This document shows positions 23,995 through 28,573 of a DNA stretch of 36,684 nt, one piece after another. The position numbers and the translations under genes are program-made. Origin of the DNA: a virus. Lineage: Duplodnaviria > Heunggongvirae > Uroviricota > Caudoviricetes. Positions within the stretch are counted from its first letter, which is position 1, and every line of letters starts with the position of its first letter. The notes under the pieces were generated by a model, which saw nothing but the letters and a program-made list of their open reading frames with translations, was not told where the DNA came from and ran no database searches. The stretch covers positions 1-36,684 of IMG/VR virus record IMGVR_UViG_3300031998_000033; one strand, given 5' to 3'.

Positions 23995-24693
23995 TTATAT
24001 CTTAAAAATCAACTTGCTTCTATTCACATCAGTTAAAACAGTATTGGCTGGAACTAGCCATTCTTGCTCATCATATTCTATAGCTTCATTCACTCTGAAG
24101 TCTTTGACATCTCTATCATACTAATATTTTAGAAGTTCTTCATTTGGATAATTCTTGTAAACATATATATATCCATCAAGTAGTGCACCAAACCAGTTTT
24201 TATTGTGGTGGTCAATGCCATACTTATCGCAGATTTTATCCATATTGAAATCTGTAACTATCTATTCTATGACTTTTATAAAGTATGACAAATCAAAAAG
24301 CTTGATAGAACATGACTAGATAGTCATAACATAATCATCTCCATCAGCAAAATTTGAAGCTGCTACCCAATCTGTTGAAAATGATGATATATGTTTCAAT
24401 GCACATTTATCAAGTGCTAATGCTTTATTCTTCTAATCTCTGGTCAACCCTCTATAGAGTTTGCTTTTCACAAATGAGCCATATGCTTTTATTGCTTTGT
24501 CTAATAGCTTGTCGCTTATTCTATCATCACATTGGTATTGGCATAAGTCAGTGATGTCTTGCGCTGTAAGTGCTCTAGCAGAAAATAAAGCATTGTCTTT
24601 AACCATTTTGCATATAGCATCATAAATCTAATGATATATTTTGTAATATTCAACATTATCTATTATGTTTGGATAATATTTCTTAAAGCTCAT
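23995..24693 (-). CDS. T4 ModA/ModB-like NAD+:arginine ADP-ribosyltransferase (232 aa; absent from the standard-code track)
   Basis: ATG overlaps the nrdG stop (TGATG); open frame with 5 TAGs to TAA 23995; R-S-E class motifs LYRG, ISSFST, ASNFA and DEQEWLVPA. Confidence 0.75.
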
Positions 24694-25172
24694 CAGAAAT
24701 CTTCTCCTCTCTTCAAGATCCTCTGATTTCTGCTTCCTCTAAAAGGGATGCTCAGATCTTTCTGCTCTTTGACAAATGGCCCATCAACAAGCACATCAAT
24801 ATACTTCAAAATGTCTTTCATGCTGTCATCAGCCTGTATCTCTTCAAGAGTGTAGCCTGACCACAGCCACTGGTCTTTGTCTGGAAACCTCTCGCGGATC
24901 TCCTTCGCAAGCGCTATCACCTGCTTCCTGTTGTCCGACAGCCTAGACAGCGGCTCCCCGCCGAGGAACGATACGCCTCTGCACCACGGCTCCTGCATTT
25001 CTTTGAAGATCTTCTCCTTCGCGGCCTCGTCGAACGGCCTGCCGAACTTCTCGTCCTGCGCCTCGGGGTTGAAGCACCCCGGGCATTTCCTGGCGCACCC
25101 GCTGACGAAAAGAGAAACACGAAAACCCGTCCCATTGGCAATATCCGCCCTTGTTATCGAAGCGTAATTCAT
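24693..25172 (-). CDS. nrdG: anaerobic ribonucleotide reductase activase (radical SAM)
   Basis: NGTGFRVSLFVSGCARKCPGC (CxxxCxxC), LGGEPL, VLVDGPF, FRGSRNQRI. Confidence 0.95.
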   Translation of the reverse strand: MNYASITRADIANGTGFRVSLFVSGCARKCPGCFNPEAQDEKFGRPFDEAAKEKIFKEMQEPWCRGVSFLGGEPLSRLSDNRKQVIALAKEIRERFPDKDQWLWSGYTLEEIQADDSMKDILKYIDVLVDGPFVKEQKDLSIPFRGSRNQRILKRGEDF

Positions 25173-25174
25173 AA

Positions 25175-26263
25175 TCAGGCCTCCAATCCGTTGTGCTTGA
25201 CTCGATGCTCGACCTCATCCTGCTTGCCAAAGTTGAAAGCCGTCTTATAATCGCCAGTCAAGTAGCCTGTCACGCGTCTTAACCGCTGCACCTTCTCGCT
25301 TCCGCACTTTGGGCAAGGTCCTGGAATGTCGCCCTAAAACCCGCATTCCGTACAGAGATCGCTCGGAACATTGATCGCGAAATACGGAATGTCCTTGTCC
25401 ATCGCATAGTTGACGAGCTCCTCCAACGCATCTATATTGTTAACAGCCGCGGAATCAAGCTCGACGTATGTGATGCAGCCAGCGCTCGAATACCCCGTCA
25501 GCTTCGACTCTACATCTATCTTCTCAAACGGCGTCATCTTCTTCCACACCGGCACGTGTATCGAATTGGTGAAGAAGTCGTGGTCCGAGACGTCCTTGAT
25601 CTCTCCGTACTTCTCCTTGAACTTCTTCATAGCGGTGTAGCAAAGGTTCTCCGCCGGCGTGTAGTATACGCCGAAATTCAGCTTGAGCTCCTTCTTGTAC
25701 TTCGCGCACTTGTCCTTGAACAGCTGCTCTATCCTCTGCGCGAGCTCCATGCCCTTCTCTTCGACATGGTCGCATCCTATCAGGATCTGCAGCGTCTCCG
25801 CGAGCCCGAGCTGCCCGACGACGAGCGTACCGTGCTTCAGCGCCGACCTAATGCCCTCTTCCGGCTTATATCCGTATATCGTCCCATTCTCGTACATGAA
25901 CTTCGCGGACTTGGCCGGCTGCGAGCATATCCAGTCGAACCGCTCGAGCAGCATGTCCTTAGCCTCGCCGATCTTCTTGTCGAGTAGCTTCAGGAACTCC
26001 TCGACCGGGTCGGTCTTGTTCTTCTCAGCCTTCTCCATGGCCTGCATTGCAAGAGTTGGCATGATGATGGTGACGGGGCAGATGTTCCCGCGCCCGTCTT
26101 TTTGATTAGCGGAATAATAACCTGTATCGTTTCCATTCAAACAGTCTGAAACAACTTGCTTAATGTCGAAATTAACGTCCCACCCATTGTAAGTACGACA
26201 GCCCATTGTTGACGTAACATTAAGCGGACTTACGTAATTATCGACTAATACCACTTTTTTCAT
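25175..26263 (-). CDS. nrdD: class III ribonucleotide reductase, C-terminal half (NrdD-b)
   Basis: Own GGAGG RBS and ATG 26263; STMGCRT (thiyl Cys), DGRGNICPVT, YYTPAENLC, FTNSIHVP, CTECGF(TAG)G...CPKC Zn site, RRVTGYL glycyl-radical loop; ends TGA 25175. Confidence 0.93.
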
Positions 26264-27390
26264 TAAAAAGTTCCTCCATTTGGTAAATTGCCAAATAATT
26301 GAGATTGTTAAGTTTTGCTGTCTTCCGTTTTACGACATCACTTCCAGCCCAAACTAAAACCTGCTATTGTTCAATCCAATTCTTCGGATTAATTTTACAA
26401 TGTTCTAAGTGCTCGATATGAATTGGATTATTTTCATCAAAAGGCTCAATATAATGTGTCGGAAAAAGATTCAATTCAATAAACAAATCAAGTGATTTAA
26501 TATAAAAATCGCAATTAAACGGATATCTAACATCATCTCTAAACTATCTAATAACATTGTCTTTACCATATACATCGCACAAATATTCATAACAATCTGT
26601 TTCAGGTTTACTTGTATTAAATGTATGATTAACGCGTTTAGAACATTGAATCTTATCTTGTATGCTTTTATTATTGCGCATGCTGTTTATTTCGTCAGAC
26701 GCAAGATAAAATTGAACGTTATATCTTTCCAGCATAGTACGCTTTGCTTTCTCTCTATCTCCGCGTACGCCATTTCCGCCATAACGCTGCTTACACGTCT
26801 CAGTCGCCTTATGCGCGTTATTCCAATTATAGTCTCCATATTTATTCAGCTTAGTCTGTTTTATCGACTGCTGATGGTGAGGATCTATGCATCCACATCT
26901 ATGACAACAATGATCGTTGTAGCCATTCTCATTCAAACTGTGTTTCCCCAAAAACGGAATAAGCTTGCCGCAAACTGGACAAATTGGCTTTGATTTCATG
27001 TTGAATACCAACCAATAAACCCTTTCAACATCAGATTCAGCGTTTGGAAACATCTTACGTAAACTGTTAACCAAATGTATATTGCTTTTATTTCTGGTCA
27101 ACCACGTATAATAACCTTTCGGACTTGCCCAGAAACGAGCTATTATTTCCTATTTATATTGTTCTTTCATGATGCTTCTATATTATATTTACCAATATAG
27201 ATTAGCATAACTTACGCCAATTATTCATCTATAACAGTAAACCCGAAAAGAGCTGCCTCTTTAGGGTTCTTTTCTACCCATTCAACTAGTCGCTGCATAT
27301 CTTGTTTTGACAAAGAATCAAGATATTTCTGTTTTTCATTTCGGTCAAATTCGATTCCAGTAATATCATTACTCCAATTTGTCGATACGT
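26105..27390 (-). mobile_element. AT-rich homing-endonuclease cassette with flanking co-converted nrdD sequence (boundaries approximate)
   Basis: Abrupt switch from C/G-ending codons to A/T-rich sequence near LYPNY (about 27390) and back near KDGRGN (about 26105); endonuclease ORF in the middle. Confidence 0.65.
26238..27170 (-). CDS. free-standing putative homing endonuclease (Zn-finger + repeat domain + C-terminal PD-(D/E)xK/Vsr-like nuclease), 310 aa
   Basis: ATG 27170; CPVC...HCCHRC, K.T.L.KYG/RYG repeats, SKPE, VIR(TAG)FRDDVRYPFNCDFYIKSLDLFIELN, DVVKRKTAKLNNLNY; 3 TAGs; ends TAA 26238, overlapping nrdD-b start by 26 nt. Confidence 0.75.
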
Positions 27391-28573
27391 AGTTGGGGTA
27401 AAGGCGCAACGATGTGGACTTGAGCGCGAGGCGGAAAAGGTCGTAGTTAGGGTCACCCTCTTTGCGGTTGACGCCCTTCATACACTGGAAAATGCCGCAC
27501 GGGAATATCGCGGTCTTATGGAACTTGCCGCATCCTTTGATGCTGCCCTCGATCAAGGCCTTGGTGACCATCCGGCCTTCCGGAAGAGTGCATGTCCCGT
27601 AATTGATGGACGTGAACGGAAGCTGGCAGCCGCTGCGGCTCTGGAGCGTGTTGAGGTTGTGATACATCCCCTCCACGGCCTGGTTCAGCTCTTCGACGGT
27701 TTTTTCCATCGCGTATTTATACGCCGGAAGCTCGTGGTTATACCAGTCCGAATCGATAGAAAGCTACTTTATCTCGTCCCTGGACAAAGGCGACTTGCCA
27801 GAATGCTCTTCTTTAATCTTTGACTTGCTCATCAGATCAATGAACCGCAAACCATCGAAGTAGTGCTTATGAAAGCTAAGTCTTACGTACGGCACCATCG
27901 TCCAGTCGAGGTGTGTGGCCGCGACGCCGCCGAACTGCTGCAGGCTCTGGAGCTGGAAGATCACCGCGACGAGCTGCATCGCGGTATTGATAGATCCGGC
28001 CGGCCTGACGTCGGTCTGCCTCGTGTTAAAGCCCTCCGCGAGGAGCTTGTCGAACGGTATGGAAAGGCAATTATGATTGCCAACCGCATATGCGTCGAGA
28101 TCATGGATATAGATCTCGTTATTGTTGTGGTTATGCCTGGCCTTTGTCGAGATAAGATGCTCGAGCGCATAGCTCTTCATCACATAGCTCGCGGCTTCGC
28201 CAATGCGCCCGCCAAAGCTGAACTCGTCGACATTCGCGTTCTAGTTCTAAATGTTGGATGCGGTCAACTTCTCGGTCAAAGCCTTGCTGGTCCTAACGCG
28301 CTCTTTTTCATAACGGTATGTAATATACTGTTTTGCGACCTCGTATCCCTACGCTTCCATAAGCTTACGCTCGATGGCGTCCTCAAGCGCATCAATGCCG
28401 ATGGGCTCCTCCATCGCCTCACATGCCGCAAATACAGTATCAGTAATGCGCGTTATCTGCTTTTTCGTCAGTCTGTCTTCTTCTGCTACCGCCATATTGG
28501 CGTTGCATATCGAATCGAATATTTTCTTTTTTGTAAGCAGTTCTGTTTTGCCGCTCCTTTTAACCACATTCAT
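27221..28573 (-). CDS. nrdD: class III ribonucleotide reductase, N-terminal half with ATP-cone (NrdD-a)
   Basis: GGAGG RBS, ATG 28573; VVKRSG ATP-cone, ASNI(TAG)N(TAG)NANVDEFSFGGR, IYIHDLD, GNHNCLSIP, QFGGV, HNLNTLQSRSG.QLPFTSINYG, IFP..IF, LYPNY; 4 TAGs; ends at true TAA 27221. Confidence 0.93.

Follow-up and report, generated by a model that had tools for sequence, protein, structure and literature searches.

A phage anaerobic ribonucleotide reductase gene in two parts, with a putative homing endonuclease gene between them

Introduction

How can a working enzyme be made from a gene that is cut between the codons for two of its active-site cysteines? The question is raised by a stretch of DNA from a large tailed phage of the gut or rumen (Caudoviricetes; positions 1 to 36,684 of the IMG/VR virus record IMGVR_UViG_3300031998_000033), the whole 36,684 nucleotides (nt) of which we call the window. 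Here nrdD, the gene for the anaerobic (class III) ribonucleotide reductase, appears as two genes, nrdD-a and nrdD-b, and a third open reading frame (ORF), which putatively encodes a homing endonuclease, lies between them. A sequence-only reading of this DNA had taken the arrangement to be a two-gene nrdD with an endonuclease gene in the gap, and protein domains, catalytic motifs and related loci now support that core proposal. In our judgement the two products probably form a working two-polypeptide class III reductase, translated with TAG read as glutamine, with a laterally moving cassette in the gap.

Gene layout and genetic code

The locus consists of four tightly packed minus-strand genes, namely nrdD-a, a 310-codon ORF, nrdD-b and nrdG, laid out as follows.

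27221-28573, minus strand: nrdD-a, 450 amino acids (aa) and a TAA stop; ATG start, with the stop codon at 27221-27223 after ...GFTVIDE
27171-27220, minus strand: spacer of 50 nt from the nrdD-a stop to the ATG of the endonuclease gene
26238-27170, minus strand: free-standing putative homing endonuclease gene, 310 aa, with three TAG codons read as Gln
26272-26277, minus strand: GGAGGA ribosome-binding site of nrdD-b, within the 3' end of the endonuclease ORF
25175-26263, minus strand: nrdD-b, 362 aa and a TGA stop; ATG start
24693-25172, minus strand: nrdG, encoding the activase, 159 aa with the radical-SAM motif CxxxCxxC, beginning 2 nt past the end of nrdD-b

The endonuclease ORF lies in a frame that differs from that of both nrdD halves, and its 3' end overlaps nrdD-b by 26 nt; no terminator-like site was found on the minus strand of the 50-nt spacer. 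Under the standard code, in-frame stops interrupt nrdD-a four times, the endonuclease ORF three times and nrdD-b once, and all eight are TAG. When these codons are compared with the related locus L003, which uses the standard code, TAG stands opposite a CAA or CAG Gln codon at 3 of 3 positions in the endonuclease ORF, 1 of 4 in nrdD-a and 1 of 1 in nrdD-b, and in alignments with unsplit homologues the nrdD TAG positions are mostly opposite Q. Taking TAG as a sense codon also gives a compact gene map over the whole window, in the form of a minus-strand array. From these codon comparisons the reading of TAG as Gln in the window genes is well supported, and it is because TAG is so read that the two-gene account of NrdD holds; ARAGORN found no suppressor tRNA gene in the window (1-36684). 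Once TAG is Gln, the coordinates proposed earlier, including the TAA after ...GFTVIDE, the 50-nt spacer and the 26-nt overlap, are exact, and nrdD-b does have its own ATG and a GGAGG site inside the end of the endonuclease gene. The accompanying claim that both halves and nrdG look intact stands given this code, and what it had left unstated is that the genes are shattered under the standard one.

Two complementary halves of NrdD

In Pfam searches, NrdD-a carries an ATP-cone and profile positions 2-248 of NRDD (PF13597), and NrdD-b carries positions 259-562 of the same profile followed by Gly_radical (PF01228); the PHROGs assignments of both halves agree with this division. Compared by phmmer with solved structures, NrdD-a corresponds to residues 6-394 and NrdD-b to residues 436-741 of the Prevotella copri NrdD (8P23). 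All the catalytic motifs are intact, with GNHNC on NrdD-a and STMGCRT, CTEC...CPKC and RVTGYL on NrdD-b.

28301-28573, minus strand: ATP-cone, in nrdD-a
28067-28069, minus strand: first active-site Cys codon, of GNHNC, in nrdD-a
26198-26200, minus strand: thiyl Cys codon TGT of STMGCRT, in nrdD-b
25304-25354, minus strand: zinc ribbon CTEC...CPKC with four Cys, in nrdD-b
25259-25276, minus strand: glycyl-radical motif RVTGYL, in nrdD-b

We take the roles of these Cys and Gly residues to be those established for C79, C290 and G580 of T4 NrdD. The active-site cysteines lie on different polypeptides, GNHNC in nrdD-a and STMGCRT in nrdD-b, as had been recognized earlier. The neighbouring nrdG matches Fer4_12 (E 2.9e-48) and phrog_626. 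Neither a second nrdD nor a class I or class II large subunit was found in the 105-kb record that contains the window and is about 43% complete.

Relatives with the same break

We read the DNA of ten split loci from independent assemblies, comprising the window, L003, L090, L093, L004, L091, L009, L088, L089 and L092. The break is common to all ten: a homologous tail closes nrdD-a before its TAA or TGA stop, and nrdD-b has its own start, MK(K/R) followed by hydrophobic residues, with a purine-rich site upstream in most. The same break is kept in alleles that are 65-99% identical and come from many samples, and the frame of nrdD-a relative to nrdD-b is not conserved but varies among the loci.

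Endonuclease genes occupy the gap in six loci and belong to two unrelated families. The first, of DUF7487 type, is found in the window, in L003 (76% identical) and in L090 and L093 (33-38% identical), and is characterized by a zinc ribbon, DUF7487-type repeats and a conserved C-terminal domain; the second, with GIY-YIG and NUMOD3, is found in L004 and L091. The other four loci (L009, L088, L089 and L092) have no gap endonuclease, and nrdD-a is separated from nrdD-b by 24-49 nt only. The presence of an endonuclease is patchy at this one site among close relatives, the gap being either empty or filled by other endonucleases. The gap is a landing site for endonuclease genes, and it is the whole cassette that moves. 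Of the proposal that nrdD was split by the endonuclease of the window, the free-standing gene in the gap stands and the causation does not follow, because relatives with a GIY-YIG/NUMOD3 gene or with a mere 24-49-nt spacer share the break. A comparison with the unsplit alleles of relatives, which had been suggested as a check, turned up both short and long single-chain forms and supports the two-gene reading.

Position of the break

Short unsplit homologues read ...YPNYANVDWSNAAGYDPENPCTYFSTMGCRT... at this site and have neither tail nor head, whereas in split alleles NrdD-a is extended by a tail of about 45 aa and NrdD-b opens with a head of about 17 aa. The window forms are these.

27224-27364, minus strand: C-terminal tail of NrdD-a (ITGIEF...FGFTVIDE, 47 aa), which short unsplit NrdD lacks
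26213-26263, minus strand: N-terminal head of NrdD-b, 17 aa, MKKVVLVDNYVSPLNVT, its start being the second hairpin strand of the long form

The tail is free of insertions and deletions across the ten loci, and pairwise differences number 760, 384 and 959 at the first, second and third codon positions. The ratio of nonsynonymous to synonymous substitution (dN/dS) is about 0.2 in the tail against about 0.12 in the core, with dS saturated, which indicates purifying selection on the tail. By this codon pattern the tail is a real, protein-coding part of NrdD-a.

Proteins in which tail and head are contiguous were found in a search with NrdD-b. The near relative L095, which is TAG-recoded and has flanks 78% identical to the window in DNA, encodes at L095:3272-5767 a single-chain NrdD of about 813 aa in which the insert, of about 55 aa, is unbroken; standard-code gene calling had divided this protein at its single TAG codon. 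The C-terminal 588 residues were modelled with AlphaFold2 from an alignment of 56 rows, with a mean predicted local distance difference test score (pLDDT) of 84.4; the model places in the insert three helices (176-194, 198-210 and 212-218) and a hairpin of strands 220-223 and 226-229 with an Asp-Gly turn, after which the cysteine loop follows. In this model the break falls exactly in the turn of the beta-hairpin, the point at which split forms have a stop and a start, and it is because the break sits there that NrdD-a keeps the tail and NrdD-b a short head. At the DNA level, L088 and L095 differ at the turn by a 33-nt in-frame indel, with GAG GAG TAA, 24 nt and ATG AAG in the former against GAC GGA AAG in the latter. 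The cut ends carry opposite charges, NrdD-a finishing in ..EE or ..DE and NrdD-b beginning MKK...

A search with the 65-aa insert against protein representatives returned four proteins, and is silent on prevalence because split and unsplit alleles fall together in the underlying clusters at 50% identity; by this search the insert has no detectable relatives beyond this NrdD lineage. A different start, at the internal Met of ...EGRMV(I/T)KAL, is seen in many C-terminal fragments of NrdD that are 405-429 aa long (P0132, P0133, P0135 and others). That Met is 83 residues before MGCR, and could mark another break site or a cut at TAG made by standard-code calling.

Among alternatives, the one that survives best is that insertion of the endonuclease inactivated the gene, so that the ORFs are decaying remnants and the phage depends on host or other phage reductases. 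The divided active site and the incompleteness of the 105-kb record are compatible with such decay, and a fragmented nrdD of unclear status is known from phage phiAS4 (PMC3653736). We nevertheless regard inactivation as improbable, since every catalytic motif is kept on both halves, core and tail remain under the selection just described, and the break persists through the wide range of alleles and samples noted above. Moreover, nrdD-b retains its own start in all loci, mostly with a purine-rich site, nrdG is intact and adjacent, and the fetched record contains no other reductase.

Tests for an intron, an intein or bypassing

Could a single chain be restored by splicing? No group I intron (Rfam RF00028) was detected between 25900 and 27700 at E values up to 10, nor anywhere in the 105-kb record, and the window has no similarity to the introns that some relatives carry in nrdD-b. 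Pfam found no Hint or Intein_splicing domain on either half. The tail and head together total about 65 aa. No Cys is conserved in the tail and neither Cys nor Ser at the upstream junction; tail and head have no conserved His-Asn and no Cys, Ser or Thr that follows an Asn, and the Ser-Thr conserved in STMGCRT is preceded by Met, Phe, Ala or Thr. Nor was there any sign of a translational bypass element at the break. In four loci the break leaves no room for a ribozyme, because 24-49 nt lie between the halves. The earlier view that the break contains neither intron nor intein is upheld by the Rfam and Pfam negatives and by these spacers in endonuclease-free relatives.

The relatives' introns lie in nrdD-b, 20 codons past its start, between the Gly and Cys codons of TMG/CRT; they range from 251 to 1031 nt, with a 5' exon ending in U and an intron ending in G.

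L088:5447-6477: group I intron
L009:2087-3112: group I intron
L089:5470-5791: group I intron
L092:5572-5822: group I intron

As a positive control, Rfam detects the L092 intron (29.3 bits, E 6.5e-4). The L088 copy (1031 nt) contains a GIY-YIG ORF, the 251- and 322-nt copies contain none, and the L009 copy is 1026 nt long. Relatives with different endonucleases or with an ORF-free gap of 340-411 nt had led us to suspect one group I intron with variable endonuclease ORFs, an idea that was dropped when the intron proved to be a separate, second element within nrdD-b. Gene callers begin 'nrdD-b' at the last ATG of the intron and so report false proteins that start MCRT... The T4 nrdD intron is not at this site but near codon 180.

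Restoration of a single chain, by an unrecognized self-splicing RNA, by trans-splicing of a degenerate split intein or by ribosomal bypassing, is somewhat less probable again than inactivation of the gene. A real group I intron does lie 20 codons downstream in relatives, nrdD-a and nrdD-b share a frame in the window, and the bypassing in T4 gene 60 is tied to a similar mobile cassette (bioRxiv 10.1101/2022.08.31.505936). Yet the window and its record contain no Rfam group I match and nothing resembling the relatives' intron, and endonuclease-free relatives combine their short spacers with mixed relative frames. Against an RNA element, too, the tail evolves as protein; against an intein, there is no Hint domain, and the roughly 65 aa available lack conserved junction nucleophiles and recur in the contiguous form as a mature-looking, confidently folded insert. 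Finally, the 957-nt gap of the window holds a presumably translated ORF in another frame.

An artefact of assembly or gene calling, through a chimeric contig or a misread code, might be suspected of a metagenomic contig whose genes look shattered under the standard code, but is scarcely credible given that L003, from another sample and in the standard code, has the same order of nrdD-a, orthologous endonuclease (76% aa identity) and nrdD-b, that the break recurs in nine further loci from different assemblies, and that TAG as Gln is supported codon by codon.

Predicted assembly and proposed working of the two halves

A complex was predicted for a natural standard-code pair, P0006 and P0129, from alignments of our own making (28 and 30 split homologues). 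The interface score ipSAE was 0.88 against 0.00 for the best control; 58 of the 80 solved complexes in the calibration reach this mark, as do 2 of its 110 mismatched pairs, figures that apply only roughly to alignments of our own making. Three runs agree in at least 91% of contacts, with partner pLDDT of at least 87, and the confident interface comprises residues 405-450 of the tail, residues 1-22 of the head and residues 24-53 of NrdD-b. This prediction supports, and does not show, that NrdD-a and NrdD-b assemble, and the pass may reflect likeness to solved structures because the chains are halves of a solved fold. The structure prediction of the two halves that the sequence-only reading had called for is in this sense favourable for the relative pair, and possibly a mirror of known NrdD folds.

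We propose that the halves would be translated separately and reassemble without a covalent join. The barrel would be shared, its first half coming from NrdD-a together with the allosteric ATP-cone and the GNHNC cysteine, and its second half from NrdD-b together with the thiyl-radical Cys loop, the zinc ribbon and the glycyl-radical loop. NrdD-a is predicted to end in three helices and one strand with acidic last residues, and NrdD-b to open with the partner strand, MKK... Once assembled, the pair would be activated by NrdG and would act like single-chain NrdD, and the low-GC cassette may spread among nrdD alleles through endonuclease homing and co-conversion.

Several points weigh against this two-polypeptide enzyme. 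All four endonuclease-free split loci carry the group I intron 20 codons downstream, and none of the ten split loci (0/10) is without any mobile element. The complex was modelled for a relative pair about 78% identical to the window's halves. The nuclease nature of the gap ORF is suggested by a weak PHROG match and a sub-cut-off DUF7487 match, and expression, the existence of two polypeptides, radical generation and catalysis are features that we infer from the DNA. Finally, the 105-kb record is about 43% complete (CheckV), so that another reductase could lie elsewhere in the genome. We still favour the working two-polypeptide reductase over its rivals.

A bolder extension, which we consider possible but rather doubtful, is that the tail, the head and the helix after the Cys loop form a portable 'protein staple' that moves with the endonuclease genes and the neighbouring intron as one cassette, the long forms being secondary fusions after endonuclease loss and not ancestral. 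Such a staple, if real, would let mobile elements colonize the most conserved nrdD DNA, which codes for the active site, with no need of splicing at the RNA or protein level.

Lateral movement of the cassette

The part of the locus that sets split alleles apart extends beyond the endonuclease gene.

26102-27387, minus strand: cassette of 1286 nt, containing the tail, the endonuclease gene, the head, the codons of the thiyl-Cys loop and an insert after the Cys loop

Over 26102-27387 there is no DNA-level alignment to the unsplit alleles L007 or L095. The guanine plus cytosine (GC) content of the cassette is about 0.35 (tail 0.35, endonuclease gene 0.34) against 0.52-0.58 in the flanks, with sharp steps from 0.56 to 0.33 at the upstream edge (27388) and from 0.37 to 0.58 at the downstream edge (26101). 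Because they form one low-GC block, the tail, the endonuclease gene, the head and even the thiyl-Cys codon entered together from a lower-GC donor. The contiguous insert of L095 has a GC content equal to that of its surroundings.

In a tree built from the cores of 119 NrdD-a sequences, at least 20 changes of the split state are required, and at least 10 of these are forced by well-supported branches. The nearest core relative is unsplit for 20 of the 30 split alleles, at identities as high as 99.2% (P0030 and P0086) and 98% (P0037 and P0103). Cores of only 73% identity can have identical tails, and tails of 64% identity occur with cores of 92%. A single exchange can be followed between the split L089 and the short unsplit L094, which are 98.7% identical up to ...YPNYAN, where 802 nt replaces 208 nt, and 97% identical again from ...KLLDKKIGEAKD. 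On these comparisons of aligned alleles the cassette demonstrably moves laterally between nrdD genes by recombination, and we infer endonuclease-driven homing with co-conversion as the driver of its spread.

The gene in the gap

The 310-aa gap protein combines DUF7487-type repeats with a zinc-ribbon motif, and its C-terminal domain bears an invariant E..D..E..H..D..K series; these residues would fit a nuclease but prove nothing. Its dN/dS is 0.067 relative to the L003 orthologue (76% aa identity), indicating strong purifying selection, and the family comprises at least 756 metagenomic proteins. The gap ORF matches phrog_3339 'homing endonuclease' weakly (E 2.4e-6), and its match to Pfam DUF7487 scores under the cut-off. 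An NCBIfam search gave no match, the sole match of the family profile among Protein Data Bank sequences was a zinc-ribbon look-alike, and a single-sequence AlphaFold model of the protein has a pLDDT of about 33 (32.7). A 'Vsr-like' identity was dropped after hhalign gave a probability of 0.07 against Escherichia coli Vsr, and is retained as a lead only.

A second DUF7487-family gene occurs at L091:7936-8601, about 600 nt downstream of nrdD-b, in a locus whose gap between the halves is filled by a GIY-YIG/NUMOD3 gene; the family therefore also occupies other sites near nrdD.

Neighbouring genes

Downstream of nrdG on the minus strand is a 232-codon ORF (23995-24693) with five TAG codons, in an AT-rich stretch (GC 0.37 over 24001-25000). 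Genes with an ArdA domain lie directly upstream of nrdD-a in five relatives (L089-L093), and IS605/TnpB (Cas12f-like) genes or fragments occur within a few kb of nrdD/nrdG at L093:80-1354 and L095:1400-1774.

Comparison with known systems

The closest known parallel is the class Ia nrdA-a/mobE/nrdA-b of phage Aeh1, genes in pieces according to Friedrich et al. (2007) as cited in PMC3045599, whose tails arrived with the endonuclease and are essential for activity (Crona et al., 2011; PMC3045599). Both systems have a free-standing endonuclease gene, without intron or intein, between the halves of a reductase catalytic subunit (PMC3045599). In both, the break is beside the active site and leaves catalytic cysteines on different polypeptides, a unique C-terminal tail marks the upstream half and a unique N-terminal tail the downstream half, and relatives have unsplit alleles. 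The parallel, drawn already in the sequence-only reading, is supported by the separate ORF signals, the unfused endonuclease, the lack of an intron or intein and the product-specific tails, and the window nrdD is a class III counterpart of Aeh1 nrdA/mobE. The differences are that the enzyme is a glycyl-radical class III reductase and not a class I one, and that the endonuclease is of DUF7487 type and not an HNH MobE; the window tails, moreover, are parts of an insert that is unbroken in the near relative L095 and cut in a hairpin turn, and the window-type break occurs with two endonuclease families or with none, in dozens of alleles. Assembly and activity are biochemical findings in Aeh1, whose aerobic enzyme is the only earlier demonstration of a two-piece reductase of this kind, and here assembly is modelled.

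In T4, the large subunit of topoisomerase II is split into genes 39 and 60 by a MobA cassette (bioRxiv 10.1101/2022.08.31.505936; PMC3045599). There too an endonuclease cassette splits an essential enzyme near its catalytic site and the products always retain C- and N-terminal extensions, the endonuclease is swapped or lost in metagenomic relatives, and secondary fusions occur. Unlike the T4 case, the present break has no sign of a bypass element, and host gene and endonuclease differ.

Fractured genes, said to have been described by Dassa et al. in 2009, reportedly consist of host gene halves with split inteins and a free-standing endonuclease gene between them. The order of half, endonuclease and half is the same here, and reductase genes are typical fractured-gene targets. 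The difference lies in the extensions, which total about 65 aa, have neither Hint motifs nor junction nucleophiles, and are kept as sequence in contiguous proteins.

Interruptions of phage nrdD itself are known. The group I intron of T4 nrdD (sunY) encodes I-TevII (PMC2988022; NC_000866), and, as in the window's relatives, a mobile element with a GIY-YIG endonuclease interrupts the gene, but the window has no intron and the T4 site is a different one. Of 104 genomes of Jug jumbo gut phages (2026), 95 have an nrdD in fragments that are separated by endonuclease genes, and one junction without splicing reads is reported and taken no further (PMC12880540). Those phages use the standard code, and the fragments differ in size from those of the window, 230 and 91 aa being named. 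That paper puts the breaks down chiefly to introns and inteins, and describes neither tails nor an allele series nor assembly at the protein level (PMC12880540). The interrupted phage nrdD genes that have been surveyed are introns, inteins or unexplained fragments (PMC3653736). In the literature we found no account of a class III reductase in which the split parts the two cysteines and the pieces are held together as protein. The earlier statement that a described class III equivalent was not known consequently holds for a case analysed as here, and must give way as far as fragmented nrdD with endonucleases in jumbo gut phages is concerned (PMC12880540); the class III split is poorly described rather than wholly unseen.

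Significance

In annotation, split nrdD genes can readily be mistaken for pseudogenes, above all where the phage has recoded TAG. Close relatives provide an unusually complete natural allele series, which runs from short unsplit and long unsplit forms to forms split without an endonuclease and forms split with either endonuclease family, with or without the neighbouring intron. The series makes two questions testable: how a homing endonuclease can enter essential DNA that codes for an active site and leave the gene alive, and whether the tails originated in the mobile element or in the host protein. If the reading is true, the 'molecular lego' solution of Aeh1 would extend from class I to class III reductases. 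If the halves work together, they would constitute a natural glycyl-radical enzyme in which two polypeptides make up the ten-stranded barrel and each contributes one of the two catalytic cysteines.

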